Assembly: GCA_022823865.1 (NCBI GenBank)
Contig: JAJEHF010000215.1
Span: 2,924-66,923 of the forward strand
Reading direction: 5' to 3'
Length of the DNA: 64,000 nucleotides
Source of the DNA: Bryobacterales bacterium
GTDB taxonomy: Bacteria; Acidobacteriota; Terriglobia; Bryobacterales; UBA6623
Position numbers and translations under genes: made by a program. The notes below the pieces were generated by a model, which was given only the letters and a program-made list of their open reading frames with translations, did no database searches and was not told the origin of the DNA. This document shows positions 516 to 19,680 of this stretch, in pieces. The stretch's first letter is position 1. Every line of letters begins with the position of its first letter.

Positions 516-883
516 GGCGGCTGGCCTTCTGTTTCGGAAAGTTGCTCACAAGAACGCTCAACCGATTCCGGGATCCTGTCGGAGGAGTTGCGCCGAACGA
601 GCAGCATGGGGTTATCGCGGCACACAACTAGATCCCATTCGATCTCCTTTCCTTGATCGCCTGCCTCGGGCAGCTTCAGGAATGCCCGCCAAGACACGCG
701 AACTCCCTTATGACTCCCGTGTCAGTTGTGATGTCGCGCTAGACAGAACGTAATGGTCTTGTGTCCATTGTGCATGGTCGCCAGACAGCCCGCAGCAGTT
801 CTGTGGGTCAATTGTGTATGATCGCTAGCACATCGGCGGATGACCGGAACGGACTTCGATAGCCATTTCGGACTTCAGGGAAT

Positions 884-2074: not shown

Positions 2075-2076
2075 CT

Positions 2077-2099
2077 GACGTCCGGTTGTTTAGGACGTC
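2077..2099 (+). terminator. Hairpin immediately after the Rieske gene
   Basis: Inverted repeat GACGTCC-N9-GGACGTC begins 2 nt after the TAA stop (2072-2074). No T-tract follows. Confidence 0.35.
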
Positions 2100-3971: not shown

Positions 3972-4317
3972 CCACCCATCCTGCTTAGGCAGCGATCTTG
4001 GCATGGAGCCGTGTGTGTTGATTCTTGCACTGCACGGGGCTCGAATGTCCTGGCGCAGGGCGCAACCTGCGGGCGTTGCGGACCCCCTCGAACGTCTTCC
4101 AGCGCGCTCTTCGAGCTTCAGAGTCTTGCAGAAGCTCGCGGCCATGGCGTCGTCGACGGACTGCCAGCCGGCACCGAGACCCGACCAACCCACACACGTG
4201 CGAGAAGCAGCTCGCGAAAGCGCGTCGAGGCGCGCTGCAATCCGCGGGCGCTGTGACAGATGCACCCGGAAAACGGTCGGCGGCGAGTGGGCACAGCACC
4301 TCCGCGTGAGTCCGACA

Positions 4318-5436
4318 TTAGAGGGCGACCGCTCCGGAAAGCACCATGAACACGTAGGCTTTCGCTTTCCGCAGCCGATTTTCCGAGATGACCAGCTTGA
4401 TGTGGTGAATGCCTCGTAGCAGCACATAGCGCCCGGACTTCCCGAAGAGCGTGGTCGGTTTCGAGACCCAGCCGGCAAGCGCCGCTAGCTTCTCCGGAAC
4501 TACATGATCCTCGTGGCTCAGCGCTTCCAGAAACGGGTCCCAATCCGTCAGGCCATCGAGCCAGTACCGTGAGTCTTTCGTAAATCTCTGCTTGACGATA
4601 ACCGTGAGGCCGAGCGTCGGGCCGAGCCCCCCTTCCTGGACGTCGATATTCGCCCCGGTCCTGACAATGCTGACGCGCTCCTGGAAGCGTGCAAGCACTG
4701 ATTCGACGGCCGAGATCTGACCCGGCCAACCCGCGCTCTTGAGATAGGAACACAATTCCTGCTGCGACTTGAAGCCCATGATCGCCAAGCGGACCGCCCG
4801 CGAACGAGACGGGAACACACCGAACGAATCCATGCGCGTGTCTCCCGGCTGTGCCAGGTAAACGCGTTCGACGATCTCCCGCTGGGCGCCATTCGTCTCC
4901 CACCCCAAGCAAGAAGCGAGCGCGTCAACCACCACACCTACATCGTTGACCTGACCGCCGGCTCCGACGATCGGTCGTTCGCCGGGCCGAAGGAACATTC
5001 CCGGCAGCGAACATCCGCCGTCCCGCGCCGAGCCGATGTCATATTCCAACATCAGCTTGCGGCCGACAATGTCACGGAGAGGCGAGTGCTCGGCGTCCAT
5101 TTGGCTGAACAGCCGCACGATCGCCCTTGCGGTCTGATCCGTGTTGTCGGTCCGAGCCCGCTTTCGGAAGAAAGCCGCCGTTCTAGTTCCGCTCGCCAGA
5201 GACGCGCCAAAGTCCGCAGCTGGTTCGCGTGCATGCAGCGGCAGTTCGAAACCGAATGGAAGGGCACCCATCGTGATCGGAAGCGTCCTCGCGCATTCGA
5301 GTATTCGCTCCCACTCCGTATCTCCAATGAGAACGGGCGAGACTCTGTTTCGAAAGTGCCCGAGCAATTCGCCCATGGTGCCGCCCTCTTCCGCGAGACG
5401 GTCTTGGGTGAGTACGACTGCCTCGTCAATGTCCAT
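4318..5436 (-). CDS. Hypothetical protein, last gene of the YcaO operon; possible ABBA-type prenyltransferase-like fold (speculative)
   Basis: 372-aa ORF with a GAGGAG RBS, starting 9 nt after the YcaO stop. I can name no motif. Paired beta-strand-like segments (LGLTVIVKQ, IHHIKLVIS, KAKAYVFMV) give only a weak ABBA flavour. Confidence 0.5.
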   Translation of the reverse strand: MDIDEAVVLTQDRLAEEGGTMGELLGHFRNRVSPVLIGDTEWERILECARTLPITMGALPFGFELPLHAREPAADFGASLASGTRTAAFFRKRARTDNTDQTARAIVRLFSQMDAEHSPLRDIVGRKLMLEYDIGSARDGGCSLPGMFLRPGERPIVGAGGQVNDVGVVVDALASCLGWETNGAQREIVERVYLAQPGDTRMDSFGVFPSRSRAVRLAIMGFKSQQELCSYLKSAGWPGQISAVESVLARFQERVSIVRTGANIDVQEGGLGPTLGLTVIVKQRFTKDSRYWLDGLTDWDPFLEALSHEDHVVPEKLAALAGWVSKPTTLFGKSGRYVLLRGIHHIKLVISENRLRKAKAYVFMVLSGAVAL

Positions 5437-5445
5437 ACAGTCTCC

Positions 5446-7800
5446 TCAGGCAATTACAGGCACCGGATTCAGATCGGCCTCGGCCAAAGGTTGCTCGCGA
5501 CGCCCCATGCTGACAGGCACGTCGTACAGGCGTCCGGGGGCGAATCTTGCCCAAAAATGGCGCATGCCCGGGACGATGACCCGAGCCACTGGCATTCCTA
5601 TGTCCGGCCGGGTCTGATCCAGCACCAAGAATTCCATGCCCCTGGCTTCGACGAGTGCCCGGCAATTCTCCACATCTTCGCGCGTATCGGTCGATTCGAT
5701 CACTGAGTATTCTGAAGCCTTGCGGAGCGGCTCGTCTTCCGCCGGCGCCAGCCAGGGACAATCGGCGAGCCGAACGGTTTTCCACCACCAAAGCGCCAGC
5801 GGATCATCGATCATGGGCCGACCGTCGCGCCTCCCTGGACGGGGCAGCCAGGTAAGGCACTGGTTCAATTCGCAAATCGCGCGCAGGGCCGCTATGTTTG
5901 GGTCGGCGTGGGCACCGGCGCCGTAAATGATGTCCTCCGTTTGGGCGCCCGGTCTGCGCGAGAGCGCAACGAACGTGGGGATGCCGAGATCGGAAGTGAC
6001 GTCGAGCATCCACAGGTCCCGCTCGTAGCCACCGTAATAGTCCGGGGCCGACGCGAGGTACTCGTCGTTGAAGCCGGAAAGATCGACGCCGGGAACTCGC
6101 AGCCGGTTGTACCACCAGATGGCGAACGCATCGCGCTCGGCCAGTTCATAGAAGCCTTGCGCTATGGCTTCTTCCAAGGTATTGCCCGCGGCGCAGCCGT
6201 TGGAATCGGCGATCAGGTCCGCAGGGCCACGCTGTTCGGCCGGCATGCTGTAGAGCATCGACGTCGGAAGGTAACGATGTCGCTGCTGCGTAAGCGACCA
6301 CACAGGTGTCCAATCGAGCTCTGCATCGGGATCGAGACGCTGCGGGACGATGTTATACGGGTGGCCCTTCGCGTTGATGCTCTTCGCGTCGTCAAGCTGA
6401 TCGTCGCTGAACAGCTGAGCGTCGTTTGGATGGATCGCTTCCTCTCCGCTGGCGAAGTCGATAAACCGCTTGCGGACTCGGATCTCGTCCCCACAGCAAG
6501 CGCCCGAATGGCGCTCGACCGCCTCGCAGAGGGCGCTGGCCCTGGATTGCTCTCGTGTGCTGCCCTTGCCCGCGCTCTTACTGCGCAGGCTGCGCCTGAG
6601 CGAACTCAACGTCCGACTTCTCATGCCGAGATTGCTCCCGGCCCAATAGACATGCAGCCAGGAATCGGTCTCAGCGGTCGTCCGCGACAACCAAGTCACG
6701 ACACCGCTGATCGGGCTCACCAAGTGGCGGTATTTCGCCAACGTGACTTCCGGCGCCACGGTGCGCGCCCCGCCGCTGTTTCGGTGCGTCTTGGGGCTCG
6801 CCTTCAGGCTCAGCGCAGCTGGCGGTCGATCCGGCCGGTACAACGCTTCGTCCCCACAGGCCAGACACTGCGGCCGGCGCATTACCGAGTGCCGGGAGCT
6901 TTCGAGTGTGCCGACATTCATCGCGATCGCCTGTTTGTGAATCGGGGCCAGCTCATCCAGCACGAGCCACTTGACGATCTCCCCTGCGATCAGCCCGTAC
7001 AGCGCTTCGAGCACTGCGGGCTGAGCCGCGAACGGCTTGAATGCAGCCTCCTCGCCGGCCAAGTTGCGCAGGAAGTTGTGGACTTCCTGATGGCTGCGCA
7101 GGCGGTAAGCCAAGCAGTCCCAGCACGGTCCTTGTCTATCCGCATGAAATATGGGGCCGAACAGCGCCTCCATGCCACGGGGTCGCACCAGTGTCCACGG
7201 CGCTCCCGTCTCGAGGCGGCACCGATTCACCACTGCCAGGTGTGACGCGAGATAGTCGTCGCAGACAAGGACGGTGAGCGTGGGATCGACAGTCCCCACG
7301 CTGGCGCCGCTATCTTCCAACTGCCGGATTAGCCGGCCGTCGTCACCCTCAACCTTGATGCGCGATTCCGCCAGTCGCTGCTCGACCCAGCGCGGCGATG
7401 CACCAAGCGACGACCAGTAGGCCGCCCGGCATCGGTCCATGCCATGATCGGCAGAGACGACATAGCCTTTGGCCGAGAGCGCAACAATCGCCGCACGAAC
7501 ATCGGCTGCGGCATGTGTGCCCTCAAGGGCCGCGACAGTCTCTTGCTGGGGGTGCCGGCCATCGAGCAACGGCAGCAGACTGCGATACAGCTTGCCGTGC
7601 AGCAAGGTATTGAACGACTCGGAAACCAGCAGCATTTGCTGTTCGCCGATATGGCGAAATCGCAGGTGCGGGGCCAGCGCGGGAAGCTCGACGAGGCCCT
7701 GGTCCAACGGAGTCGTTCTGGTCAGAATCCCATGCCTGGGATTGATGTCCGTCTGCGCTGGCATCTGGGATTTGCGCGCCGGGTCAGCCGACAAGCTCAC
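5446..7800 (-). CDS. Fused E1-like (cyclodehydratase C-type) / YcaO (SagD-type) azoline-forming cyclodehydratase
   Basis: 784 aa. The N-terminal half carries CxxC pairs (GPCWDCLAY, RRPQCLACG). The C-terminal half is YcaO-like (...GKGSTREQSRASALCEAVERHSG..., ...NGCAAGNTLEEAIAQGFYELAERDAF...) with a Pro-containing C-terminal tail (NPVPV). Size and architecture resemble PatD/TruD-type fusions. The GTG start overlaps the upstream stop (GTGA at 7797-7800). Confidence 0.85.
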   Translation of the reverse strand: MSLSADPARKSQMPAQTDINPRHGILTRTTPLDQGLVELPALAPHLRFRHIGEQQMLLVSESFNTLLHGKLYRSLLPLLDGRHPQQETVAALEGTHAAADVRAAIVALSAKGYVVSADHGMDRCRAAYWSSLGASPRWVEQRLAESRIKVEGDDGRLIRQLEDSGASVGTVDPTLTVLVCDDYLASHLAVVNRCRLETGAPWTLVRPRGMEALFGPIFHADRQGPCWDCLAYRLRSHQEVHNFLRNLAGEEAAFKPFAAQPAVLEALYGLIAGEIVKWLVLDELAPIHKQAIAMNVGTLESSRHSVMRRPQCLACGDEALYRPDRPPAALSLKASPKTHRNSGGARTVAPEVTLAKYRHLVSPISGVVTWLSRTTAETDSWLHVYWAGSNLGMRSRTLSSLRRSLRSKSAGKGSTREQSRASALCEAVERHSGACCGDEIRVRKRFIDFASGEEAIHPNDAQLFSDDQLDDAKSINAKGHPYNIVPQRLDPDAELDWTPVWSLTQQRHRYLPTSMLYSMPAEQRGPADLIADSNGCAAGNTLEEAIAQGFYELAERDAFAIWWYNRLRVPGVDLSGFNDEYLASAPDYYGGYERDLWMLDVTSDLGIPTFVALSRRPGAQTEDIIYGAGAHADPNIAALRAICELNQCLTWLPRPGRRDGRPMIDDPLALWWWKTVRLADCPWLAPAEDEPLRKASEYSVIESTDTREDVENCRALVEARGMEFLVLDQTRPDIGMPVARVIVPGMRHFWARFAPGRLYDVPVSMGRREQPLAEADLNPVPVIA

Positions 7801-10193
7801 ACCCGCGAGAGAAGCGTATCGATCTGCTCCCCGGCGCGGGCCGCGGTTCCGGCGACCGCCGAATTCAACGCATCAAGATCCTCGTGCCCGCAAGCGTTCG
7901 CAACCAGAGACTTGACCTTAGGGCCTGCCGCGGTCACGTCGAACCCTTCCTCCCCAATGAGGCGCGTGATGCCCTGCAAATCTCGCCAAGCGTTGGCGGC
8001 TTGCGACAGCGGCTCGGCGCCGGCGGCACTGAACACCGCTGCGGCAGTCGGAGCCGGATCGTCAAGGCCCGCTGCGAAACCTGTTAACTGCAGGAACCGC
8101 GCGGCCCTCTCGACATCATCCAGCCCGCCGCGCACACGAGCGTAGCTAGACACGCCAGGCTCGGCCCGACCTTCCGGCGCCTCGCGCAACTGGGCGATCA
8201 GGGACTCGTTCGCGGCGTACTCGGCAAGGGCTTCGCTCCGCGCTCGGTCGAAGTGCAGGCCGATTTCAGAACCGCCGGACTCGAACACGCAACGTGCCCG
8301 CGTAAGCGCGGGGATTCCTCCGGGAGCGACATTCCTGCAATGCTCCGCCAGTTCCGAGAGCGGCAGCACGAGAAGGGAACGCGAGCCGGGCCGAACCGGC
8401 GAGAACAACAGGCTGTCCTCTGCCAAGTCGGTCAGGGCCTTTCGAAAACGCCGGCGCAGGCGCTCGTGGTCGCCAGAGCGCCAGCCATCATGGACGAACA
8501 GCGTCTCGACTGCCACGCCGGGATAGACTTCCCGGCTGGCGAGGTCGCCCAAGAATATGGCGGCGACTCCACCCGCGCGCTGCGGCCCAACCCGTTCGAG
8601 AACATCCGCGACGACCGCGCCAAGCACGGTCGCAACCGACGCTTCCGCAAGATTGGACAGCGCAATCTTCGCCTCAGCAGGCGACAGGTTGCCGCGCACG
8701 ACATGCATGCCGATCTGAAATGCCTTGTCGTTCGACCAGTTTCGGACGATTTCAGCCGATTCCTTCGCATCAGCTGTCGGCAATTCGGCAATCATGTCCT
8801 TCATTTCCTGAACGCCCATTTCGCGCGTCCAGTAGAGTCTCGTCAGCCCACGCCGCGCAATCGCTTCGGATTGCTGATCCGGCCCGAATCCGCTCGGCAG
8901 GTCCAGATCCGTGAATTCGCGGTCCTGCAAGTTGTCGAGCAGCTCCGAGTTGCGCTCGATCGACTTGGCGAGCCGCGGGGCGGTGCCGAAAATCTCGACA
9001 ATCGCCTCGAAGGCATCAGGTCGCGCTGCGGAGGCCGGGCTGTCGTAGGCGCTCCAGTCCTCGATTTCTGGATAGAAGTGCATTCGCCATTGATCTACCA
9101 GCGGGTCCATCCTTGCGAACCAGCGCTTCGGCCGCAGCACGATGTTCATCATGTCGGCGTAGGTTCCCGGCAGCTCCGGCGATTCGTCCGGGCCACGAGC
9201 TTGGAGGAGCGGATAGTGGCGGGATGCCATCGCATGATGATCTGCATGCCGCTGCATGTTGAAGAACATCCAGTTGCTGAACTTCCAATCGGCACTCCAC
9301 GAGTGGCGTGGCAGCACCTTTTCCCAACGACCGTTCGGCAGACGGACCCGTCGCAAACCGTAGTGTTGAAAATAGTTGCTGATCTTCATCGAAAAGACGC
9401 AGCTCAATCCGAGAGAGGCAAAGACCAGAACGGCCCAGATCCCGCTCATCCAGAAGACTAGCCCGTACCAGAACGCAACAGCCGCTGCGTAGCGCCAAAA
9501 CGGATTGCTGTAGTGCCACATAGATCGCTGGCGCCGCGCAAGGCGTTCGCGGGCAACCTCCCAAGAATTGGTGAGGTTGCTTACAACCTCCTTGGGGAAA
9601 TACCTCCAGAAACTTTCGCCCTTTGGAGCGGATCCCACGTCATGCGGCGTGCCAACCTTCGCGTGGTGGATATAGACATGCTCCGTGGCATATTGCGGAT
9701 AGGAAGCACAAGCAAGGAGAAACTCCCCGAGCCGCCTTTCCCAAGCAAAACGCCGGTGAATGAGTTCGTGACCGACTACAAACACAGCCTGTGCTTCCAT
9801 GGTCAAGATGATTGCTAGGAGCACGTCTTCCCAGATTGAGAACGGATTCGCGACAAGGATCTGCCACATGCCGAAGATGAGTGTCGGCGGCCACAGAAAC
9901 GCCCACCCCCAGACGGGCAGATTGTGCCAGAACAAGTGGCGCTCTGACGTCTTCTCCGGGTCCATATTGCGGCCGTCGAGGCCCAGCGCCCGGTCAAGCG
10001 GCCCCGCGACGCTCATGAAGAGGAATGCCGGCAACAACCACCAGCCGCCATAGGCTGCGGCGAGAAGAATCAATGGAAAGATCCCTAGTGGCAGATAGTG
10101 CGGGATGGCGTTACGGATCGTAGGTTCGATTTCCTGGGTGGAGGCAGCCCTGTTCGAGCCCAAGCCACCACCTATAGCTGTAGCTTGCGGCAT
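7797..10193 (-). CDS. AlkB-like membrane di-iron hydroxylase fused to a degenerate GlnE-like nucleotidyltransferase domain
   Basis: His boxes HELIHR, EHVYIHH, NYFQHYGL and QRHADHH in the N-terminal ~400 aa. The C-terminal ~400 aa align by eye with the GlnE in this window, but GKLGGxELNxxSDVDL is replaced by GDLASREVYPGVAVET. GGIRDIEFLVQCLQ corresponds to GGLDDVERAARFLQ. Confidence 0.8.
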   Translation of the reverse strand: MPQATAIGGGLGSNRAASTQEIEPTIRNAIPHYLPLGIFPLILLAAAYGGWWLLPAFLFMSVAGPLDRALGLDGRNMDPEKTSERHLFWHNLPVWGWAFLWPPTLIFGMWQILVANPFSIWEDVLLAIILTMEAQAVFVVGHELIHRRFAWERRLGEFLLACASYPQYATEHVYIHHAKVGTPHDVGSAPKGESFWRYFPKEVVSNLTNSWEVARERLARRQRSMWHYSNPFWRYAAAVAFWYGLVFWMSGIWAVLVFASLGLSCVFSMKISNYFQHYGLRRVRLPNGRWEKVLPRHSWSADWKFSNWMFFNMQRHADHHAMASRHYPLLQARGPDESPELPGTYADMMNIVLRPKRWFARMDPLVDQWRMHFYPEIEDWSAYDSPASAARPDAFEAIVEIFGTAPRLAKSIERNSELLDNLQDREFTDLDLPSGFGPDQQSEAIARRGLTRLYWTREMGVQEMKDMIAELPTADAKESAEIVRNWSNDKAFQIGMHVVRGNLSPAEAKIALSNLAEASVATVLGAVVADVLERVGPQRAGGVAAIFLGDLASREVYPGVAVETLFVHDGWRSGDHERLRRRFRKALTDLAEDSLLFSPVRPGSRSLLVLPLSELAEHCRNVAPGGIPALTRARCVFESGGSEIGLHFDRARSEALAEYAANESLIAQLREAPEGRAEPGVSSYARVRGGLDDVERAARFLQLTGFAAGLDDPAPTAAAVFSAAGAEPLSQAANAWRDLQGITRLIGEEGFDVTAAGPKVKSLVANACGHEDLDALNSAVAGTAARAGEQIDTLLSRV

Positions 10194-10270
10194 AGCAGTC
10201 CCCCTAATGGACTATCGCTCCCTAGCATTGACGTTCATGTTACCACCGGATGACCCAACCTGCAAGTCCT

Positions 10271-11569
10271 TCAATCCCTTATGGTTTCGACAAGACGTTC
10301 CAGAGCTTCGATACAAAATGCCGAGGTCACTGCTTCCGATCCGTGCCCGATCCTCCCCACCGCGCCCCACTTCAAGAATTGGTCACCAAACGCGAGAAGC
10401 TCCGGCCAGCTACCGTCCTCGCGTTGCGAATCTATGAACGCCTCGACCTGGTGCTTCGCATCGACGCTCTCAAGGCTTCCGACGCTGTAAAGCGCCGATG
10501 CCGCCTGCGCGGCCTGAAGGACGTTGCCGAATCCTCCGTTGTTGTCGCACAGACCTCGGATGCGGTCCGCAAGTATCGGGCGGAGTTGATCGAGAGCAGG
10601 CTGCACACGAACCACGGCGCGAGCGATCGCATAGTAGATCGCGACCGTATCCGGATACCACTTGGACGAGCCGTCGAGGCGGTCTTCGGCGATCAAGTCT
10701 TCCAACCATCGTTGGGCATCTTTCGTTTCCGGATGGTCGCCTAAGTAGGCAATCACATTCGCATTGACAACTGGGTCAGATTCGAGGCGAAATCTTGACA
10801 CAACGTTGGGCTCATCGTCTTCTAGGACCCAAGTTGAGAAACAGCCGTTTTCGTCGCGATTCTTCAATATTCTTGGAACGTTTCGTCCGAGAAGAATCCA
10901 AGGATGATTCCCGCCGACCAATGAACACAGCGCAGTGCTGTCAAGATCCTGGGGAAGATGGCTGTAATAGCGCCAAAAGCCGGGATATTCAATGGTGTCG
11001 GCAAGGTACCTCTTGGTAGCGGTGCACATGGCCTTGGCCCGCGCTTCATTGCAACTCTCCAAGGCAAGCACGCACAGGGCTGAAACGAAAGGAGGCCTTT
11101 CGAAATGCCGTGGAATATCCGGATCAGCCGTGTTGAAACGGATGCACTGCCAAGCCCCGTTCTTGTCGATCGTGGATTCCAAGAATGCGAGACCGCGGCG
11201 GATGCTGTCTCTACCCGCTCTCGCAAGCGTCCCAGAGACGGCAGCGATGGTTCGGGCTCCCGTCGCTCCCCGGGCGGGCCGGGCCGGCGGCGCGGGGTCG
11301 TAGAGTGTCTTGCGAAGAAAATCGAGCGATGCTGCTCCGGCTTTCGCCGCGCTCCGTTCGGCGTCACTGAGTTTCCTACGTGGCGGTAGCACCACGTGCG
11401 TCGAGGAATAGGTCTCTTCGTGTACGTGAATCTCGTGGCCTTCGGGCAGCGTCACGCCGAATTCCTTCTCGAATGCTTCGCTAGGTTTCTCGAGAAGAAG
11501 TTCGCGAAAGTCATCGTCCTCGCCAGCTCTTGATACCAGAAAATCTTCTGCGCCGATAGGTTCCTTCAT
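10271..11569 (-). CDS. NHLP (nitrile-hydratase-like) leader domain fused to an alpha/alpha-toroid prenyltransferase/terpene-cyclase-like repeat domain
   Basis: The N-terminus DDDFRELLLEKPSEAFEKEFGVTLPEGHEIHVHEETYSSTHVVLPP...KLSDAERSAAKAGAA matches the NHLP leader pattern, including a Gly-Ala/Gly-Gly-type cleavage region. The remaining ~350 aa carry spaced repeats (KNGAWQ, YPGFWRYY, ENGCFSTW, DGSSKWY, NNGGFGN, EDGSWPE) typical of prenyltransferase-beta/squalene-cyclase repeats. Confidence 0.75.
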   Translation of the reverse strand: MKEPIGAEDFLVSRAGEDDDFRELLLEKPSEAFEKEFGVTLPEGHEIHVHEETYSSTHVVLPPRRKLSDAERSAAKAGAASLDFLRKTLYDPAPPARPARGATGARTIAAVSGTLARAGRDSIRRGLAFLESTIDKNGAWQCIRFNTADPDIPRHFERPPFVSALCVLALESCNEARAKAMCTATKRYLADTIEYPGFWRYYSHLPQDLDSTALCSLVGGNHPWILLGRNVPRILKNRDENGCFSTWVLEDDEPNVVSRFRLESDPVVNANVIAYLGDHPETKDAQRWLEDLIAEDRLDGSSKWYPDTVAIYYAIARAVVRVQPALDQLRPILADRIRGLCDNNGGFGNVLQAAQAASALYSVGSLESVDAKHQVEAFIDSQREDGSWPELLAFGDQFLKWGAVGRIGHGSEAVTSAFCIEALERLVETIRD

Positions 11570-11597
11570 TGATGTCTTCCTCGTCCCCGGGCCTTTG

Positions 11598-11617
11598 TCG
11601 AGGGCGAATCCTCGACA
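11598..11617 (-). other. 7-bp stem-loop in the 5' region of the NHLP-fusion gene
   Basis: GTCGAGG-N6-CCTCGAC, ~29 nt upstream of the ATG at 11569, within the 234-nt gap after the ABC genes. Function unknown. Confidence 0.3.
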
Positions 11618-11803
11618 GCCAAGCTGATTCGAGCACTCGGATCATCACAGCCCCAAACTACTCCAAGGCCGCCCCGGGGAGCAGGAGCGGGAGATGCTGT
11701 CACGACTCCGATCTTGGGCAGGGCGGGATGAAATCCTATAGCCGGCCATCCGATCCTCGCCCACCAATGGAACGACAGCTCCCAGGCGGTTCGCCCATTC
11801 GGA

Positions 11804-14746
11804 TCAGGCGATCTGCCTCTTGACCAGTTCCTTGAACACCCCGTCGACCTCCATCAGGTCGCTGAACGAGCCGCTTTGCACCACTCTTCCGGCCTGCAAC
11901 ACATAGATGTGATCAGCCTGTTCCAGAGTGGACAGGCGGTGCGCGATCACGATCCGGGTGGAGGTGAGGGCAGTGAGGTTCCGCATCACTTTGGCCTGGC
12001 TCTCGTTGTCGAGCCAATTGGTTGCCTCGTCGAACAGCATGATTCGCGGGCTACCGATCACCGAGCGGGCGATCGTCACGCGCTGACTCTCGCCGCCTGA
12101 CAGGACAGCCCCGCTGGTGCCGACCATAGTCATCATGCCCATCGGCATGCTCTTGATTTCGCTTTCAACCTCGGCGATCTGGACCGCCTTCCATACTTCC
12201 TCGTTCGCCACTTCATCGCGGTGACCGACCAGATTGTCCCAGAGATCCAGAGGATGCAGTCCGACCGATTGAGGCACGGCGCCAATCTTCCTGCGCACCT
12301 GTCTCAGGTTCAGATGTCTCAAGTCGCGGCCGTCGTAATACACCGCGCCGGCGGTCGGCCGGTCGATTCCAAGCGCAAGCCGGAACAGCGTGCTCTTGCC
12401 AGCACCAGACTCACCGGCAATCGCGACGAACTCGCCCGGGCGGGCGCGAATCGTGACATCGTCGAGAATCAGCGGGCCATCCGGATCGTAGCGGAAGGAA
12501 ATACGGTCGAACAGGAGTTCGCCACCCAGATACTCGACTGGCTGTCCTTCGACATCGCTCTCAGGAACTGCAGCGAGCAGCGGACGCATCTGATCGAAGG
12601 CCGGCAGCATGGCGGCAACGGTGCCGAAGGACTCGCCGAGCCGCGCGATGGCGGACTGGAAAGCGATGAAGACGGTGTAAACGACGAGAAAATCGCCGAC
12701 CGGGACGTTCCCCGTGCCGATCTCGACCGTTGCAAAAAGCAATACCCCGCCAGCAACAAAGGGGAGCGCGGCACCGAATGCCCGCAAATGTCCCTCCAGT
12801 GCGCCCAGTTCAAATTCCGCGCGTTTCTGCTCGCGATAATCCCGTGCCCAGATAGCGAAAGCCGACCCTTCCGCGTTTTCCACGCGCAGCTTGCCGATAC
12901 CCCCCACGATCTGGAAGAGCCGACCGGCGACACGACGCGCTGCGCCGAGCATTCGCGCATACGGTGGAATCTGGCGCAGCCCAAGGACGACGGTGATTAG
13001 CAGAGAAGCCAAGCTGAAGACGAGTGCGACAGTTCCGAGGGTGGCATCGTAGAAGAAGATGAGGCCGAGAGCCGGAAGCAGGAAGATGATCGACAGCAGG
13101 CTATCGGCGACGACTCCGTGCAAGCCATCGCGAAGATTCTGGAAGGTCATTCCCGACATCGCCAGATCTCCGGATGGATGTCGGTGCAGAATGCTTGGCG
13201 GAAGACGCATGAGGCGGTCCCAGAAGGCAGCCTCGACCCGAGACGCCGAGCGCCCCTCAAGCCGCATCATCGCTGTGCTTTGAAAGACGTGCAGCAGTGC
13301 CCCGAGCAGGCCAAACCCCGCCAATGCCACCGCCATGGCATATAGCGCCCCAGAGGTTTCACCGGCCATCACTTGGTTCGCGACGAATCCAAGCGCGAGT
13401 GCCGGCAGCAGCTTGATCAGACCGCCGGGAAGCCCGGCAATCACCAGCCGCGCCAATTCTGCGGCCGATCCCCGCAGGGCGATCCTCAGAAGGTCTGCCG
13501 GCTTCACAGTCCCCGACGGCAACGGGCGATAGAACACCCAAGCCTTCTCCCCAAGCGCACCGGCACGGCGGGCCGTGATGCGGACGCGGCGCTTGCTGAC
13601 CGGGTCGATTTCCCGGTAGCTTCCGAACATTCCCGGAAGTAGCGCTACGGGATGGCCGTCCTCGGCGCGGAATGCCAGCATCGCATTGCTGTCGCCGCGC
13701 CACCATTTCCGCTCGGATGTGAATCGCACGCGCCGGGCGCGTACCCCGGACGCATCGAGAACGTCAACGAGGCCGACTGGGGAGTCAGAAGGGCTCGGGC
13801 GCACTGGAATCTTGAAATCGATTCCTTCATGGCGACCAATGACTTGGAGGGCGTCCGCCAGAGCCGTGTCCTCGACGTTGGCGTGCCGGTCGATCGGCAG
13901 GTCATAAATGTTGAACAGCCTCTGCCGCGCGGCTTTTTCCGCCATGCGGCGGCTCGTTGTCCGCGCTCGTTCGAGATTCGCATCATCGACCACTGCCAGT
14001 CGGCGGTTAAGGCGTTCCAAATAGAAAGCAATCGAGTGAAAGGATGCGAGCGCCGGCAGCAGAGTGCCTTGCTGTGCCAGCGTTTCACTTGACTTGCCTG
14101 AGATCGTCACTTCGTCGAACAATGTCAGCCAGCTTGTTCGCGTCAGCGGTATCAAGGCTTCGTGCGGGCCGCTCGCACCGGCATGTTCTGCTGGGTCAGC
14201 GATGCCCATGAATAGGCTCGCGCCGAGCGGCGGCTCGGACACCCATACCACGCCACGCCGCACGGATAGCGTGCAAGGGGACAAGGTCTGAGTCAGGCCG
14301 GGCTCGGCCAGCGCAGTCGGCCTCGGAGGCCGGCTCACGAAGCGCGCAAGTGAGTCAGCAATAGCGGTCAGCCAAGTATCGGTCTGTTCTGCAAGCTCTG
14401 CCGGAGAAACGTCGGACAGGGAGGATGCCGGCAGACGTTTGAGAAGGGTTCCTGGCGATCCCTTGGCAATCAGGCTGAGGGTCGTGTCTTCGTCATTGCC
14501 TCGCTCGTCCGGTGCGACACCCGGCAGCAACCAGCCCGACTCGAGGCTCAGCAAATGCTGCGGGGTCGCCTGCTCCACCCCGTCCTTGAGTTCGATCAGG
14601 AAAAGGTTGACGGCACCCCGTTCGATGAACCAGACGCTATCCAGGTCGTCGAGTTTCAGCGGCAGGTTGCCGGCGCAGGGCACGGAAGCACCCGAGCGAG
14701 CCGCGAGCTCGGCAAGTGATGTGTACCCCGGACTTGTTTCCCGCAT
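11804..14746 (-). CDS. NHLP/NHLM-type bacteriocin export ABC protein ('ABC2'): cNMP-binding-like domain + non-catalytic C39-like domain + TMD + NBD
   Basis: 980 aa. N-terminal beta-roll-like segment (DSVWFIERGAVNLFLIE), a C39-like region without a catalytic Cys, Walker A GESGAGKST, signature LSGGESQR and Walker B IMLFDEATNWLD. The start overlaps the upstream stop (TGATG at 14744-14748). Confidence 0.8.
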   Translation of the reverse strand: MRETSPGYTSLAELAARSGASVPCAGNLPLKLDDLDSVWFIERGAVNLFLIELKDGVEQATPQHLLSLESGWLLPGVAPDERGNDEDTTLSLIAKGSPGTLLKRLPASSLSDVSPAELAEQTDTWLTAIADSLARFVSRPPRPTALAEPGLTQTLSPCTLSVRRGVVWVSEPPLGASLFMGIADPAEHAGASGPHEALIPLTRTSWLTLFDEVTISGKSSETLAQQGTLLPALASFHSIAFYLERLNRRLAVVDDANLERARTTSRRMAEKAARQRLFNIYDLPIDRHANVEDTALADALQVIGRHEGIDFKIPVRPSPSDSPVGLVDVLDASGVRARRVRFTSERKWWRGDSNAMLAFRAEDGHPVALLPGMFGSYREIDPVSKRRVRITARRAGALGEKAWVFYRPLPSGTVKPADLLRIALRGSAAELARLVIAGLPGGLIKLLPALALGFVANQVMAGETSGALYAMAVALAGFGLLGALLHVFQSTAMMRLEGRSASRVEAAFWDRLMRLPPSILHRHPSGDLAMSGMTFQNLRDGLHGVVADSLLSIIFLLPALGLIFFYDATLGTVALVFSLASLLITVVLGLRQIPPYARMLGAARRVAGRLFQIVGGIGKLRVENAEGSAFAIWARDYREQKRAEFELGALEGHLRAFGAALPFVAGGVLLFATVEIGTGNVPVGDFLVVYTVFIAFQSAIARLGESFGTVAAMLPAFDQMRPLLAAVPESDVEGQPVEYLGGELLFDRISFRYDPDGPLILDDVTIRARPGEFVAIAGESGAGKSTLFRLALGIDRPTAGAVYYDGRDLRHLNLRQVRRKIGAVPQSVGLHPLDLWDNLVGHRDEVANEEVWKAVQIAEVESEIKSMPMGMMTMVGTSGAVLSGGESQRVTIARSVIGSPRIMLFDEATNWLDNESQAKVMRNLTALTSTRIVIAHRLSTLEQADHIYVLQAGRVVQSGSFSDLMEVDGVFKELVKRQIA

Positions 14747-16956
14747 CAGCCTGCCCTGACCAGCTTGTAGTACGTGCCGTCCCGATCCGCAATCAATTCC
14801 TCGTGCGTGCCGCGCTGCACTTCGACGCCCTTGTCCAGCACGATGATCTCGTCGCAGTCCCGCACGGTGCTTAGCCGGTGGGCCACGATCAGGCAGGTAA
14901 CACCCCGGCGCCGCAGGGCGTCGTCGACATCTTCCTCTGTCGCGGCATCCAGAGCGCTGGTTGCCTCGTCCAGGATCAGCACCGTCGGGTTGCCCACCAG
15001 AGCGCGGGCGATTTCGAGTCGCTGCCGCTGCCCGCCGCTGAAATTCACGCCGCCCTCCTCGACGACGGTCGAATATCCGTTCGGCCTGACCAGGATTTCG
15101 TCATGGATGCGCGCATCTCGTGTCGCGGCGAAGATGGCTTCGTCCGGAACCGCTGGATTCCACAAGGTGATGTTGTCGCGCAGGGACGCAGAGAAGAGTA
15201 CGCATTCCTGATCCACCATGGAAACGGACTGCCGCAGCACTCCCTCGGGAATCTCGTCACGCAAATGGCCATCAAACAGAATCTCACCCGACCAAGGCCG
15301 ATAGACGCCCGCAGCCAGACGCGCCAAGGTCGACTTGCCGGATCCGCTGGGGCCGACCACGGCAACTCGCTGCCCTGGCTTGATCACGAGGCTGAAGTCC
15401 TTCAGCAAAGCTGGCCGGCTCTTATTGAAGCCGAAGGTGACGTCTCGCAGTTCGAGCTAGCCCGCAAGCTGGAGTCGGCCGTTGAATGTCGAAATTGACC
15501 CCGATTCGGTACCCCGGCGGCTGAAGACGGGGTCTTCGGCGGTCTTGGAGATGTCGTCGAGTCGTTGCAAATCGGTCGCAAGCTCCTGGCGCTTGTCGGC
15601 GAACTCTAGGAAGCGCCCGATAGGAGCCAAGAACATCTCAGCCAAGATATAGAAGCCAGCCAGCGTCCCTAGGGTCATTTCTCCGGTCATCACCAGCCCC
15701 CCTCCGACACCAAGGACCGCCGCGCTGCGGAGTCCGGCGACCAGGCCCGGAAGTGCGGTGTTGACGGAGCCCAGTTCGGAATAGAGCTGGCGCGCCTGCA
15801 GCTCGCGGGCCTGCTGACCGCTCCAGCGCGAGAAAAATCGGTCATCGGCCCCCGTCATGCGCAGGTTGTCCGCATGACTGAGCATCTGCATGCCGACGCC
15901 AATCAGCAACCCCTGCTCGCGCCTCATCGCCTGGCTTCGAACAGCCCGGGCCGCGTTGAGAAAGTGGGCCAGCATCCCGTGCAGCACGCCCAGGAGCACC
16001 ACAATCAGCGCGAGCAGGACATCGTATGTCAACATCGCGATGAGCAACACCGCACTCATCGCTATGTCGACAATGAGCACGATGAACTCGTCCGTCAGCT
16101 TCTTCGCGATCCGGTCCATCGAGGAAACCCGATCGGTCAAATCGCCCACCAGCCTGTGTTGAAAAAACTCCACCGGAAATCGCAGAAGCCGCGACAAGCC
16201 CCGACTTCGACCGATCACCGAAATCCGGATTGACAGCCGCTTCAGGAACCGGTGCTTGAGCAATGACAGGATGTATGTCAAGACGCCGCCGCCAATCAAG
16301 GCCACCACCAATCTGTCCCAAGCTCCATGATTTTCCAGAACGTCGTCCACAAATATGCTGAGAGAGATAGGAACAATGAGGGCTAACAGAGTCAACATAA
16401 ATCCGCAAGCAATTACCCCAGAAAGTATACTCCATGATCCGGCAAATAAAGCTCGCAATTTCCCGAGAAATCCGGACTGCTCTCCTCCTAGAGTAAAGTT
16501 GGGTCCGCGCTTGAACCGCAACGCAATTCCACTATATCCTTGGTTGAACTCCTCAGTGGAAATCTTGCGTCTCCCTGTAGACGGATCATTGAGATAGAAA
16601 CTGTTGGCATCGAAGCCTTCAAGAACAACGAAATGGCTGAACTGCCAAAACAAGATCAGTGGCAACTCCAGCCTCCTTAGTTGACCGGCACGTATGCTGA
16701 GTCCATTGCATTCGAGGCCGTAGTGTCTGGAAGCGCGCACGATGCTCGCCGCACTGCTTCCGTCTCGGCTCACCTCGCATTTCTCGCGCAACTCGGTGAG
16801 CGGCACCCACCGCCCGAAGTAGCCAAGCACACTGCCCAAACAGGCGGCGCCACACTCTGATGCGTGCATCTGCAACAGTACTGGCGTGGCTATCTTTCGT
16901 TTTATTGGGTCTGGTTCGGCGGTATTTCTAGAATTTCTAGAAGCGTGGATTGGCAT
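14746..16956 (-). pseudogene. C39 peptidase-containing ABC exporter (PCAT, 'ABC1') interrupted by one in-frame TAG at 15457-15459
   Basis: C39 catalytic region QMHASECGAACLGSVLGYFG plus FSHFVVLEG, a TMD, and an NBD ([29 protein letters not shown]). The two ORFs share a frame, and reading through the stop gives ...[36 protein letters not shown]..., a normal TMD-NBD junction. The start is coupled to the HlyD-like stop (TAAGATG at 16954-16960). Confidence 0.85.
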
Positions 16957-16957
16957 C

Positions 16958-17509
16958 TTACGATTGCCTCGGATCAAAGATTGCAGCCGGGGGATCTTCA
17001 GAAATTTCAATGATAATCTTGCATTCGGTTCCTGCAAGCGGGGACAGATCGTGGCTTGAGTCGATCGCGATAGTTACGCGATGCACGGACACTGGTGCCG
17101 CTGCCTCAAACGCAGCCACTTCCGCAGGTGAGGGCAGCGCCGAAATCGTCCTAATCTCCCCGTCTAGTGTGTCCGCTTCTCCATCGGCGATGTCTAACTC
17201 TATGACTGCTGGCAACCCGGCTCTAAAATGCGGCGCTGCCTCGTTCTCAACCCAAATGAGCGCTTGCACAGTCTGGTTGGCCCCAAGCAAGTCCTCGCCA
17301 GACTCGATCAGTACGCCGTCTACCGCAAGGCTACGGCCTACATTGCCGAAGAAGAGCCATGCCGCAAGGATGAACAGCAACAGCGCGATGACCGCGACAA
17401 GCTGACGCTCACGCGGTGTGGAGACTGTCAATAGCCGGTCGAGTTGTTCACGCTCCTCCTTGGCTTCCGCAACAGTACTGTGAAATGAATCGAATGGATT
17501 ATTGAACAC
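16958..17509 (-). CDS. Short HlyD-family (NHLM-type) membrane-fusion-like protein lacking the coiled-coil hairpin
   Basis: NPFDSFHS...EEREQLDRLLTVSTPRERQLVAVIALLLFILAAWLFFG is the typical HlyD N-terminus plus TM. It is followed directly by a ~130-aa beta-rich domain. The start is placed at the in-frame GTG at 17509, after a GGGAGG ~12 nt upstream. The longer ORF to 17788 would overlap the divergent gene and the predicted promoter, but the start remains uncertain. Confidence 0.6.
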   Translation of the reverse strand: MFNNPFDSFHSTVAEAKEEREQLDRLLTVSTPRERQLVAVIALLLFILAAWLFFGNVGRSLAVDGVLIESGEDLLGANQTVQALIWVENEAAPHFRAGLPAVIELDIADGEADTLDGEIRTISALPSPAEVAAFEAAAPVSVHRVTIAIDSSHDLSPLAGTECKIIIEISEDPPAAIFDPRQS

Positions 17510-17585
17510 GACCGTGCATTGCCTCCCAGTCGAGATCAGGTGACGACGAAGAGGAGATCTCTCGCTTTCAGCGCAGTTTTCGGCG

Positions 17586-17615
17586 ATTATATGCAATCTC
17601 GAGCCGCGGGGGCAA
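17586..17615 (-). promoter_or_regulatory. Candidate sigma70-like promoter for the export/RiPP-like operon
   Basis: On the minus strand TTGCCC-N18-TATAAT, ~75 nt upstream of the GTG at 17509, in the divergent intergenic region shared with the FG-GAP gene. Confidence 0.4.
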
Positions 17616-17733
17616 GTCTCTTCCTGACAGTGCAGCAGAGCAAGCAGGTACCGCGTGGTGGCGCTATCTCCTGTTCGACAGGCGACTGCTGGCGCGGCTT
17701 GCGCCGTCGCGCGCATAGTGTCACAGTAGCGGG

Positions 17734-19680
17734 ATGCGTTCGACTTGTGGCTTCTTGGTCTTCGTGCTGCTCGGGCAACTCTCGGCAACGGAGCTCGAAC
17801 GTGTTCGCTACAACGACCCGAGCCTCGAGGTGGATCTCGGAGTCGGACTGTGGGCCTGGCCGCTCCCTCTGGACTACGACCAGGACGGCGACCTAGACCT
17901 AGTCGTCTCGAGCGGCGGCTTGCCCTATGAGGGGACGTACTTCTTCGAGAATCCAGCCCCGCCGGGAAGCAATCCAGCGATGCCGATATTTCTGCCGGGC
18001 GTGCGCATCGGCGAATACCGTACCAATGCGCAGGTCTCCCACAACTCCGGCCATCCCGCTCTGATCACCACTCCGGGCGAAATGCACGCGACTTTCCACG
18101 AAGACGCCTACTCCAAACCCGTAGGACTGGATGTCCACACGGAGCGAGTCTACGCTTCCAGCGGCAGGCTGCGGGCGAAGCAGTGGAAGCTGGCCGACTG
18201 GGAGGGAGACGGGGACCTCGACCTCATCATTGGAGTGGGCGACTGGGGCGACTACGGCTGGGACGACGCGTTCGACCGCTCCGGCACGTGGACCAACGGC
18301 CCGCTGCACGGCTACGTCTACCTCGCCCTGCGCGAAGCGGACGGCACGTTCAGCGATCCTCGCCGGCTCACAGCCGCAGGGCTCGACGTCGATGTATTCG
18401 GCATGCCGAGCCCCAACCTGGCGGACTTCGACTCCGACGGCGACCTCGACTTGCTCTGCGGGGAATTCCTGGACGGATTTACCTACTTCGAAAACGTCGG
18501 CACGCGGGAACAGCCGCGGTTGGCCAAGGGCCGCCGCCTGCGCAGCGGAGACGAACCGCTCGCGATGGACCTGCAGATGATCACGCCGACCTCGGTGGAC
18601 TGGGATCGTGACGGCGATGTCGACTTGATCGTGGGGGACGAGGATGGCCGGGTCGCATTTGTCGAGCACACCGGCCGGCTCGAGGCGGGCATGCCGGTGT
18701 TCGCCCAGCCGCGGTATTTTCGCCAACGCGCCGAGTTCGTCAAGTTCGGCGCGCTGGTCACGCCGCAAGGGGTGGATATCGATTCCGATGGTGACGAGGA
18801 CATCGTCGCTGGCAACACCGCAGGCTATATCGGCTGGATTGAGAACTTGGGGGGCTACCCGCCGCGCTTCGCAGAACCGGCACTGCTACGGGCCGCCGGA
18901 ATGACCATTCGCATTCAAGCCGGACCGAACGGGTCCATCCAAGGCCCCTGCGAGGCAAAGTGGGGCTACACGACGATCGGTGTCGCCGACTGGGACGGAG
19001 ACGGGCTGTTGGACATTGTGGCGAACTCGATTTGGGGCCGCGTCGTCTGGTACCGCAACGTCGGCAGCCCGCACAGCCCTCGCTTTGAAGGCGGGCGCCC
19101 CGTGCGAGTGGACTGGCAGGCCACGCCGCCCAAGCCAGCTTGGAACTGGTGGAATCCGGGCGAGCGCGAGCTCGTCAGCCAGTGGCGCACGCGGCCCGTT
19201 CCGGTCGACTGGAACGCGGATGGACTGATGGATCTCGTGATGCTCGATCACGAGGGCTATCTGGCATGGTTTCGCCGCGTCCTCCATGACGGCCACGCCG
19301 TACTGCTGGCCGGCCAGCGGATCTTCGAATCCCAGCCGGCGTCCGACTACGACCGGCAGCACCGGGCCGTGAACAACCAGCCGGGCCCCCTCAGGTTGAA
19401 CTCCGACTGGGCCGGCAAGAGCGGACGCCGCAAGATCGACGTGGTGGACTGGGACGAAGACGGCAAGCTGGACATCATCGTGAACAGCACGAGCGCGAGT
19501 TGGATGCGTAACTTGGAAACCGACTATGGCAAGACCCGCTTAGTCGACATGGGACCGCTCTCCGAGACCAAGCTGGCCGGGCACACGTCGAGCCCGACCA
19601 CCGTCGACTGGAACGGCGACGGTAGGAGGGAACTCTTAGTTGGAGCCGAGGACGGCTTTCTCTACTGGGCCAAGCCGTAA
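17734..19680 (+). CDS. Secreted FG-GAP/VCBS repeat protein
   Basis: Signal peptide MRSTCGFLVFVLLGQLSA and repeated DxDGDGDLDL(I/V)VG Ca-binding-like motifs throughout. Confidence 0.8.
   Translation: MRSTCGFLVFVLLGQLSATELERVRYNDPSLEVDLGVGLWAWPLPLDYDQDGDLDLVVSSGGLPYEGTYFFENPAPPGSNPAMPIFLPGVRIGEYRTNAQVSHNSGHPALITTPGEMHATFHEDAYSKPVGLDVHTERVYASSGRLRAKQWKLADWEGDGDLDLIIGVGDWGDYGWDDAFDRSGTWTNGPLHGYVYLALREADGTFSDPRRLTAAGLDVDVFGMPSPNLADFDSDGDLDLLCGEFLDGFTYFENVGTREQPRLAKGRRLRSGDEPLAMDLQMITPTSVDWDRDGDVDLIVGDEDGRVAFVEHTGRLEAGMPVFAQPRYFRQRAEFVKFGALVTPQGVDIDSDGDEDIVAGNTAGYIGWIENLGGYPPRFAEPALLRAAGMTIRIQAGPNGSIQGPCEAKWGYTTIGVADWDGDGLLDIVANSIWGRVVWYRNVGSPHSPRFEGGRPVRVDWQATPPKPAWNWWNPGERELVSQWRTRPVPVDWNADGLMDLVMLDHEGYLAWFRRVLHDGHAVLLAGQRIFESQPASDYDRQHRAVNNQPGPLRLNSDWAGKSGRRKIDVVDWDEDGKLDIIVNSTSASWMRNLETDYGKTRLVDMGPLSETKLAGHTSSPTTVDWNGDGRRELLVGAEDGFLYWAKP

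Follow-up and report, generated by a model that had tools for sequence, protein, structure and literature searches.

A gene cluster of a Bryobacterales bacterium is a probable member of the srp proteusin family and includes candidate prenyltransferase and terpene cyclase genes

The stretch of DNA described here comprises 64,000 nt of a Bryobacterales bacterium (assembly GCA_022823865.1, contig JAJEHF010000215.1, positions 2,924-66,923) and is referred to in its full length as the window. It contains a putative operon of seven minus-strand genes, which code for a YcaO cyclodehydratase, two ABC transporter proteins and proteins of 183, 372, 432 and 798 residues, convergent to a tryptophan halogenase gene (Table 1). 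It is very likely, with a probability of about 85%, that this locus belongs to the srp (sponge-derived RiPP proteusin; RiPP, peptide made by ribosomes and modified after its translation) family of biosynthetic gene clusters (BGCs), carried by a symbiont belonging to the Bryobacterales (Acidobacteriota). This BGC family was reportedly first described by Nguyen et al. in J Am Chem Soc in 2021 (doi 10.1021/jacs.1c03474). Later srp studies (PMC10286304, PMC10858898 and PMC12537861) and surveys (bioRxiv 10.1101/2023.06.09.544420 and PMC11832590) are also available. In the srp pathway, the YcaO protein SrpC converts the three cysteines of an LCCCW core into thiazolines, after which the flavin enzyme SrpI brominates the C-terminal tryptophan, and the family is reported to occur throughout sponge microbiomes, where its transcription is high, and across many symbiont phyla.

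The identification is based on the precursor and on the halogenase. The same gene set is found in a locus of the Gemmatimonadota (L003; loci and contigs used for comparison are numbered in this way), which encodes, beside its gene for the 372-aa protein, a canonical 83-aa NHLP precursor ending in …EAISAG-LCCCW, the LCCCW core being the hallmark of srp clusters. The halogenase gene, which was absent from a first reading of these letters (the original prediction), defines the family; its product is 80% identical, over the full length, to the SrpI sequence printed in the supplement of PMC10286304. The precursor encoded on a sister contig is 83% identical to the SrpE sequence printed in the same supplement and agrees with it in the core, the YcaO-binding motif and the AG boundary. 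This combination of genes, for which the original prediction knew of no described RiPP class, is that of a family published in 2021.

No SrpE-like precursor is found inside the 64-kb window, either by a tblastn search with SrpE, by matching a hidden Markov model (HMM) of 59 SrpE sequences to the six-frame segments of at least 20 aa, where the sole match is the N terminus of the 432-aa protein, or by scanning the six-frame segments for a C-terminal CC[WFY]. The 346-nt spacer between the halogenase gene and the operon (3972-4317) has no precursor-like open reading frame (ORF). Longer contigs of the same population were reached via a lookup of the Rieske gene, which is located near window position 1. 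In one of these, scaffold_696 (L086), which is 99.99% identical to the window over 12,074 nt (window positions 1-12074, with window position 1 at L086 position 2889), an srpE gene is present at 1770-2021, which is 868-1119 nt to the left of window position 1. It encodes an 83-aa protein (MRDGDAML…EAVSAGLCCCW) that scores 71 bits with TIGR03793, the NHLP leader model (cut-off 50.9), and the gene is also present in the metagenome-assembled genome (MAG) contig JAJDTX010000131.1. In the MAG contig L085 from NCBI, being 95% identical, srpE is located about 3.9-4.2 kb past the left edge of the window, with a full-length RND transporter gene in between. The original prediction of an operon lacking a conventional short precursor is thus correct for the 64 kb that it covered, but a canonical NHLP precursor gene is encoded just outside the window on a near-identical contig, which is a finding that the original prediction itself had named as one that would refute it, and the operon as such can no longer be regarded as precursor-less. 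The RND and Rieske genes lie between srpE and the enzyme genes, and this is why srpE falls outside the window.

The region between srpE and the Rieske gene is structurally polymorphic within one population. In L085, it contains (at 5900-8968) the complete gene for a 1052-aa RND (ACR_tran) protein and a 116-aa ORF. In L086, a deletion of about 3.1 kb relative to L085, at 2748-2756, leaves a 219-aa RND remnant. The window begins past the deletion junction, so that either version of the RND gene is possible for the strain described here.

The gene for the 432-aa protein is found in 260 species when one genome per species is scanned, with 66-91% identity to the window protein, and these species belong to the Acidobacteriota, Nitrospirota, Nitrospinota, Gemmatimonadota, Binatia, Alpha-, Gamma- and Deltaproteobacteria and others. 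The 80 of these 260 genomes that were listed are all MAGs and include Candidatus Poriferihabitaceae, Palauibacter and Rariloculus; the records shown name no host, and we infer that these genomes originate from sponges. Gene linkage was counted within 10 kb in 50 loci having at least 9 kb on either side of the 432-aa gene. The 372-aa gene is present in 49 of these loci, SrpE and YcaO in 45 each, the AlkB fusion (the 798-aa protein) in 42, and the halogenase and the transporters in 38 each. SrpE is missing in five loci, and for at least three of them the fetched stretch ends no more than about 2 kb from the halogenase gene, so its absence probably reflects the limit of the fetched sequence. A few loci contain the 432-aa gene, the 372-aa gene and SrpE with no YcaO gene within 10 kb, so that the link of the 432-aa and 372-aa proteins with the peptide is no looser than that of YcaO. 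The three accessory proteins (432, 372 and 798 aa) are 70-95% identical across phyla, and they belong to the highly conserved core of the cluster and are not oddities of the present locus. The SrpE core is LCCCW in 60 of 61 copies.

Some variation between these loci is also observed. The sole variant core, LSCCW, occurs at position 17376 (minus strand) of L037, in the genome CBDBZU010000004.1, which has two srp loci (L035 and L037). In alpha- and gammaproteobacterial loci (L028, L042, L043, L069, L070 and L024) the 432-aa gene, the 372-aa gene, srpE and the transporter genes are present, with neither YcaO nor the AlkB fusion within 10 kb, and in L007, L025, L080 and L084 a more divergent YcaO copy (61-64% identity) is found elsewhere in the locus. 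The Gemmatimonadota locus L003 is flanked on one side by a gene for an MMPL/sterol-sensing-domain transporter (1684-3969) and on the other by a TP_0789-like/DUF1329 gene, after which a 409-aa protein without Pfam match is encoded (16515-18595). The MMPL/sterol-sensing-domain and TP_0789-like/DUF1329 families are associated with lipid export.

The 432-aa protein is built from an N-terminal NHLP-like domain, a linker and a C-terminal toroid domain. Residues 1-78 (nt 11336-11569) are homologous to the SrpE leader (E 2e-11 with the SrpE HMM), and residues 9-71 score 48.5 bits with TIGR03793, slightly below its cut-off of 50.9. After residue 78 an invariant AASLEFLRKTLYDPAPP (with Ser81 and Thr88) is followed by a variable Pro/Ala/Arg linker, and residues ~115-432 form a strongly conserved domain. 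The match of this domain with SQHop_cyclase_C is at the cut-off (25-26 bits) and is found for all 16 aligned homologues, which share 73-93% identity across phyla. This is in agreement with the proposal, made from the letters alone, of a leader-like N terminus on an α/α-toroid protein. When a library clustered at 50% identity is searched with a profile of the toroid domain, 1008 representatives are obtained (E ≤ 1e-3), which are for the most part free-standing proteins of 300-350 aa; the NHLP extension is present in the srp type only.

The toroid family is characterized by the motif DxD[D/S]TA, the middle Asp of which does not vary among the representatives (34 of 34). The motif reads DxDD in 22 of the 34 and DLDS(T/S) in the srp type. 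In class II terpene cyclases, such as squalene-hopene cyclases and copalyl diphosphate synthases, DxDD(TA) provides the general acid. When the toroid profile is compared with the structure 8paj, a 365-aa monodomain "squalene-hopene cyclase," PQDLDSTA is placed on PADADSTA (E 0.06), and a QW-type repeat is matched to that of squalene-hopene cyclase with E 0.04. Among the relatives, 14 of 34 match the squalene/oxidosqualene cyclase model TIGR01787, with a best E of 1e-10. The top Foldseek matches of the AlphaFold model of the toroid protein (pLDDT 50) are drimenol synthases, 8paj/8pak and MstE. This model has low confidence; the Foldseek TM-scores are 0.3-0.5 for the models of the toroid and the 372-aa protein, and both models are weak because the alignments are shallow (all homologues being at least 73% identical). 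The Foldseek result for the toroid is therefore taken only as support for the sequence evidence. In the literature, no paper was found that mentions PDB entry 8PAJ.

It has also been considered that the toroid domain resembles LanC or the β-subunit of protein prenyltransferases and acts on the cysteine thiols of the CCCW sequence, which is reminiscent of a CaaX/CC motif. Weak Pfam Prenyltrans matches (5 of 16 members, best E 0.019), a GGTase-II β-subunit match with E 0.64 and several Cys and His residues that are invariant within the srp subfamily are compatible with such a function. No His is conserved throughout the wider family, however, which argues against a zinc-dependent site of either type, and no match with LANC_like is found. 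The feature that is conserved family-wide is DxD[D/S]TA, the relatives match squalene cyclase models at 1e-10, and the three core cysteines are the known substrates of SrpC. A LanC-like or protein-prenyltransferase-like function is thus very improbable and was rejected, and the class II cyclase assignment is preferred.

The context of the free-standing relatives, which are found on short contigs, shows little beyond a neighboring FAD-linked oxidase. The genes of the nearest of them (39-43% identity; L089 1-1161 and L090 1-528) are each preceded by a FAD-linked-oxidase-like gene, and one of these two contigs is from the same sponge-type metagenome as L003. A toroid relative and a FAD-linked oxidase may together form a separate two-gene terpenoid module.

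The presence of a genuine NHLP homologue at the N terminus raises the question of what this domain does. On the original prediction, the 432-aa protein itself could be the protein-sized substrate of a cluster without short precursor, being modified by YcaO and the other enzymes and exported by the peptidase-containing ABC transporter (PCAT) after leader cleavage. The homology to the SrpE leader, the small Thr-Gly pair at which the leader-like part ends before the invariant segment with Ser81 and Thr88, and the lack of srpE within the window are in agreement with this, but the sequence before the boundary does not have the features expected of a processed leader. In SrpE, the residues preceding the cleavage site are I-T-E-E-Q-L-E-A-I-S-A-G, with hydrophobic residues at -12, -7 and -4 and Ala-Gly at -2/-1. 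The counterpart in the 432-aa protein is L-S-E-A-E-R-E-A-A-R-T-G, having Leu or Phe at -12, Arg at -7, Ala at -4 and Thr-Gly at -2/-1. LTEEQL is marked as the YcaO-binding motif in the supplement of PMC10286304, and the srp literature describes L(X)4L as what SrpI and, by analogy, C39 proteases bind. The 432-aa protein thus has neither the second Leu of L(X)4L nor the hydrophobic residue at -4 that YcaO, SrpI and C39 recognition need, and its N terminus does not have the leader pattern of C39 PCATs (hydrophobic residues at -12, -7 and -4, and GG, GA or AG at -2/-1). These differences are preserved: Arg72 and Ala75 are invariant across phyla, and positions -7, -4 and -2 are invariant or nearly so in the 16 homologues. 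Moreover, the acid motif is of the enzyme type and is common to the free-standing relatives, srpE accompanies the toroid gene in 45 of the 50 loci, and a canonical srpE is present about 0.9 kb outside the window on the 99.99%-identical contig. It is therefore most likely that the 432-aa protein is not the RiPP substrate, and the chance that it is one, with no short precursor, appears minimal.

Alternatively, SrpE could be the substrate and the 432-aa protein a second cargo of the PCAT, with the NHLP-like domain as export signal and the cyclase acting, in the periplasm or extracellularly, on the lipopeptide after its release. Class II cyclases are cofactor-free. The arrangement of an NHLP-like domain, a flexible variable linker and a globular domain resembles that of a leader with its cargo, and in most loci the gene follows directly after both transporter genes. 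This possibility is nevertheless rather improbable, as the residues at -7, -4 and -2 differ from those of SrpE and the differences are conserved, as 7 of the 50 loci (for example in Nitrospirales) have the genes for the toroid, the 372-aa protein, SrpE, YcaO and the AlkB fusion and no transporters within 10 kb, and as the 183-aa "HlyD-like" protein is too short for a standard periplasm-spanning adaptor. The helical nucleus of the NHLP-like domain is conserved and is the best-predicted part of the N-terminal half. These sequence comparisons suggest that the NHLP-like domain is a retained docking module and not a cleaved leader.

The 372-aa protein has no sequence match in Pfam, NCBIfam or the PDB, and its homologues, as listed, are 79-96% identical. 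Its AlphaFold2 model (pLDDT 59, pTM 0.62) consists of five consecutive β-β-α-α units. The top 50 Foldseek matches are all ABBA (PT-barrel) aromatic prenyltransferases, with probabilities of ~1.0 and TM-scores of 0.4-0.5, and include bacterial 6- and 5-DMATS, IptA, DMATS1, AnaPT, NphB, CloQ, EpzP and the cyanobactin enzyme LimF. An ABBA prenyltransferase fold is predicted from this model with moderate confidence.

The 798-aa protein matches PF00487 (FA_desaturase) with 97.6 bits, and its His boxes HExxH, EHxxxHH, NYxQHYG and HxDHH (at residues 142, 171, 273 and 316) are all kept in all homologues. When it is aligned with the genuine GlnE of the same genome, which serves as internal reference, the sequence GKLGG…DVD of GlnE corresponds to GDLAS…AVE, the DxD having been lost. 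The first carboxylate is replaced by Ala in nearly all homologues of this toroid-adjacent GlnE-like subtype, and a second, more divergent GlnE-like subtype retains the Glu and Asp. As judged from these alignments, the nucleotidyltransferase site of the 798-aa subtype is degenerate. The proposal of an AlkB-like hydroxylase with a dead GlnE-like domain thus agrees well with the four intact His boxes and the change of DVD into AVE.

The YcaO protein (784 aa, or 772 aa from an alternative ATG start at 7764) has an N-terminal winged helix-turn-helix domain and scores 271 bits with TIGR03604 (cut-off 219), 134 bits with TIGR03882 (cut-off 37) and 317 bits with PF02624. These scores confirm the fused E1-like/YcaO cyclodehydratase, and the family models assign it as a probable SrpC-type protein. 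In agreement with what had been noted before, the cluster genes include no lanthionine or radical SAM enzyme, and a SagB-type dehydrogenase is found neither among the eight cluster proteins (NCBIfam and Pfam) nor among 10 further large ORFs of the window (Pfam).

The export proteins agree in part with the NHLP/NHLM set that had been assigned to them. TIGR03796 and TIGR03797 are the best-scoring models for the PCAT and the second transporter (ABC2), respectively, though both scores are below the curated cut-offs. The two halves of the PCAT match positions 2-479 and 495-710 of TIGR03796 with 427 and 366 bits (cut-off 853), and the gene is intact (736 aa) in L001 and L002. ABC2 (980 aa) scores 663 bits with TIGR03797 (cut-off 709). 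In its N-terminal extension of about 290 aa, upstream of the TIGR03797 region, no domain is detected, and the dead C39-like domain that had been suggested for ABC2 is not recovered, there being no Pfam match and no BLASTP similarity to the C39 domain of the PCAT. The PCAT and ABC2 assignments thus stand, but the "HlyD-like" protein is only 183 aa long and covers 51 of the 421 positions of TIGR03794 (6-56), with 19.6 bits (cut-off 156). It is kept at the same size in 37 of the 50 loci.

The srp identification and the properties of the accessory proteins suggest a possible pathway. SrpE (83 aa, with the leader …(I/L)TEEQLEA(I/V)SAG and the core LCCCW) would be the substrate, with thiazolines introduced by SrpC and bromination by SrpI, as known for the family. 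The 372-aa ABBA enzyme would prenylate the core, most plausibly at the indole of the tryptophan, and the toroid, with Asp210 as proton donor, would cyclize the prenyl chain so attached; the AlkB-like oxygenase would oxidize the lipid part of the product. These three steps are proposed with moderate confidence. Possible binding partners of the NHLP-like domain of the toroid are the other enzymes of the pathway and the leader of SrpE. The C39 domain of the PCAT would cut after Ala-Gly, and the product would be exported with the help of ABC2, as expected from what is known of the family. The mature product would then be a brominated, thiazoline-bearing, prenylated and possibly cyclized pentapeptide. 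The RND and MMPL transporter genes beside several loci fit weakly with such a lipophilic product. A side remark in the original prediction, namely that the product may be isoprenoid-linked, also fits with the prenyltransferase fold predicted for the 372-aa protein and with the class II cyclase motif of the toroid.

That srp clusters go beyond a brominated tri-thiazoline pentapeptide and build a peptide-terpenoid hybrid in this way, with the 372-aa prenyltransferase acting on the SrpE core and the cyclase being recruited by its fused leader-like NHLP docking domain, is nevertheless a tentative proposal, and it should be considered unlikely rather than likely. Several points weigh against it or against the srp reading of this copy. 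At the sequence level, nothing connects the 372-aa protein with any prenyltransferase family, the srp toroid has Ser at the third Asp position of canonical class II cyclases, and the structure models of both proteins are weak (pLDDT 59 and 50, respectively). The role of the NHLP-like domain is purely inferred. No polyprenyl diphosphate synthase is identified in the cluster. In the searchable literature, which does not cover the founding 2021 paper, no prenylated srp product is found, nor any report linking proteusins with terpene cyclases or prenyltransferases. The presence of srpE is deduced from a near-identical contig, the gene itself being outside the window, and both in-frame TAG codons described below may be sequence errors.

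These TAG codons concern the halogenase gene and the PCAT gene. In the halogenase gene, the in-frame TAG is at 3147-3149 and corresponds to GAG in the sister contigs; frameshifts, which were suspected from the ORF list, were rejected, as there is one frame with one TAG. In the PCAT gene, it is at 15457-15459 (CAG in the sister contigs), and both halves share one frame. Two metagenome contigs from ENA (L001 and L002), on which the sequence of the 432-aa protein is identical, differ from the window over 21.3 kb at two bases only (3147 and 15459), each of which creates a TAG. The closest complete genome is that of the Bryobacterales MAG OZ241997.1, with 91% nucleotide identity. Homologues from more than 50 loci have E or D at the halogenase codon and Q, R or S at the PCAT codon, and none has a stop. 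As written, the window copy would support neither bromination nor processing and export.

It is possible that both TAG codons are real, so that the window copy is an inactivated, decaying cluster and the strain makes no brominated, exported product; this is a serious possibility, though the odds are somewhat against it. The sole two differences from two independent sister contigs being both TAG, one in the halogenase gene and one in the PCAT gene, and the absence of a stop at either codon in any homologue would agree with such an inactivation. However, two nonsense changes without silent or missense companions are contrary to the expectation for neutral decay, all cluster genes other than these two are intact in the window, and consensus errors or an engineered or edited sequence are possible alternative sources of both codons. 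That two out of two substitutions generate stops in two key genes is not predicted by neutral drift or by random error. The candidate explanations for the TAG codons at 3147 and 15459 are true inactivation, a selected loss of function and a sequence artefact.

When compared with known systems, the locus is closest to the srp BGCs, with which it shares the LCCCW core, SrpE and SrpI proteins of 83% and 80% identity and a spread over many phyla, presumably of sponge symbionts. The differences are the RND and Rieske genes that separate srpE from the enzyme genes, and the premature TAG codons. In the accessible srp papers the three accessory genes are not assigned a function; the assignments as prenyltransferase and as cyclase are those of the present analysis. 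The thiazole/oxazole-modified microcin (TOMM)-type NHLP/NHLM systems (Haft, Basu and Mitchell 2010; TIGR03793, TIGR03794, TIGR03796 and TIGR03797 with TIGR03882 and TIGR03604) have the same type of NHLP precursor, a docking-fused cyclodehydratase and a PCAT with a second ABC protein; in the window the SagB-type dehydrogenase is lacking, the ABC2 and HlyD-like proteins score below the cut-offs, and the adaptor has only 183 aa. The mpr proteusin cluster of Methylovulum psychrotolerans (MprC/MprD) also has NHLP precursors and azolines made by YcaO, and its leaders are interchangeable for SrpI, but it has the azoline oxidase MprD and many precursors and does not have a halogenase, a toroid, the 372-aa protein or an AlkB fusion.

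The toroid appears to share with the monodomain class II cyclases MstE and 8paj/8pak a single α/α-barrel of about 320 aa, the position of the acid motif (DADSTA in 8paj, DLDSTA in the srp toroid) and QW-type repeats. The substrate of MstE is a prenyl chain that an aromatic ring already carries, and cyclization by the same logic is proposed for the srp toroid. The two are only remotely similar (profile against 8paj, E 0.06), and the srp toroid differs in having the N-terminal NHLP-like domain and a presumed peptide-bound prenyl substrate. The 372-aa protein shares its predicted five-fold barrel and its size with ABBA prenyltransferases (~300-370 aa) such as 6-DMATS/IptA and the cyanobactin enzymes LimF and PagF, the latter two also functioning in a RiPP pathway, whereas no sequence similarity to these enzymes is detectable and the assignment comes from one model of moderate confidence.

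The coordinates are collected in Table 1. The order of transcription is from the 183-aa membrane protein via the PCAT, ABC2 and the 432-aa, 798-aa and YcaO proteins to the 372-aa protein. Seven genes are thus counted instead of the eight claimed, as the PCAT gene is one frame split by a single TAG. The junctions are as described before: TAAGATG at 16954-16960, TGATG at 14744-14748, GTGA at 7797-7800 and a 9-nt gap at 5437-5445, which contains GGAG. The gap between the ABC2 gene and the 432-aa gene is 234 nt. The promoter-like site TTGCCC-N18-TATAAT, which had been called a good promoter, is indeed present and matches the consensus at 10 of 12 positions, and both hexamers and a block around the -10 element are kept in L005, the closest genome (91% identical overall, the flanking bases being more diverged). 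The number of such sites (2 found, 3.2 expected) shows no excess over chance. A terminator scan gave no signal above chance, and an Rfam scan of window positions 1-22000 gave no match. The Rieske gene, which has the cluster on one side and srpE on the other, is absent from L005 and thus represents an insertion when compared with that genome. Homologues with 62-86% identity occur in four other srp loci (L015, L018, L029 and L052; three of Nitrospira/Nitrospirales and one alphaproteobacterial), and it may be a mobile accessory tailoring gene.

Table 1. Positions of the genes and sequence elements discussed in the text, numbered from the first nucleotide of the window
Feature	Coordinates	Strand	Basis or remark
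Rieske ring-hydroxylating oxygenase α-subunit gene	893-2074	+	Pfam Rieske/Ring_hydroxyl_A and NCBIfam
SrpI-type flavin-dependent peptidyl-Trp brominase (halogenase) gene	2697-3971	+	Pfam Trp_halogenase on identical L001 gene; identity to SrpI
372-aa protein, predicted ABBA (PT-barrel) aromatic prenyltransferase fold	4318-5436	-	AlphaFold2 model and Foldseek
Probable SrpC-type fused wHTH/E1-like/YcaO cyclodehydratase	5446-7800	-	TIGR03604, TIGR03882, PF02624, PF21084
798-aa protein, AlkB-type membrane di-iron oxygenase with degenerate GlnE-like nucleotidyltransferase domain	7797-10193	-	PF00487; weak PF03710
432-aa protein, NHLP-like domain, linker and toroid domain	10271-11569	-	TIGR03793; SrpE HMM; SQHop_cyclase_C
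D208-L-D210-S-T-A213, counterpart of the DxDDTA general-acid motif	10931-10948	-	aligned to DADSTA of PDB 8paj
NHLM-type ABC2 permease/ATPase, 980 aa	11804-14746	-	TIGR03797
C39 peptidase-containing ABC transporter (PCAT, NHLM ABC1)	14746-16956	-	TIGR03796, both halves
183-aa membrane protein, faintly like the N terminus of the NHLM HlyD-type protein	16958-17509	-	TIGR03794
Promoter-like TTGCCC-N18-TATAAT	17586-17615	-	77 nt upstream of first gene (183-aa protein)
Genuine full-length GlnE, 975 aa	39462-42389	-	PF03710 340 bits and GlnD_UR_UTase

As a further copy of a known family, this locus is mostly ordinary, and it shows how the edge of a window can produce an apparently precursor-less RiPP operon. 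What it brings to the srp family is that the three accessory genes are linked to SrpE nearly as tightly as the YcaO gene, and that the prenyltransferase, class II cyclase and oxygenase readings make a concrete prediction for missing srp chemistry that can be tested by mass spectrometry. If these readings are true, the cyclase would be an enzyme that carries a copy of the leader of its own substrate as a docking module, and a leader-like domain naturally fused to a tailoring enzyme would bear on how large, structured NHLP leaders are recognized.

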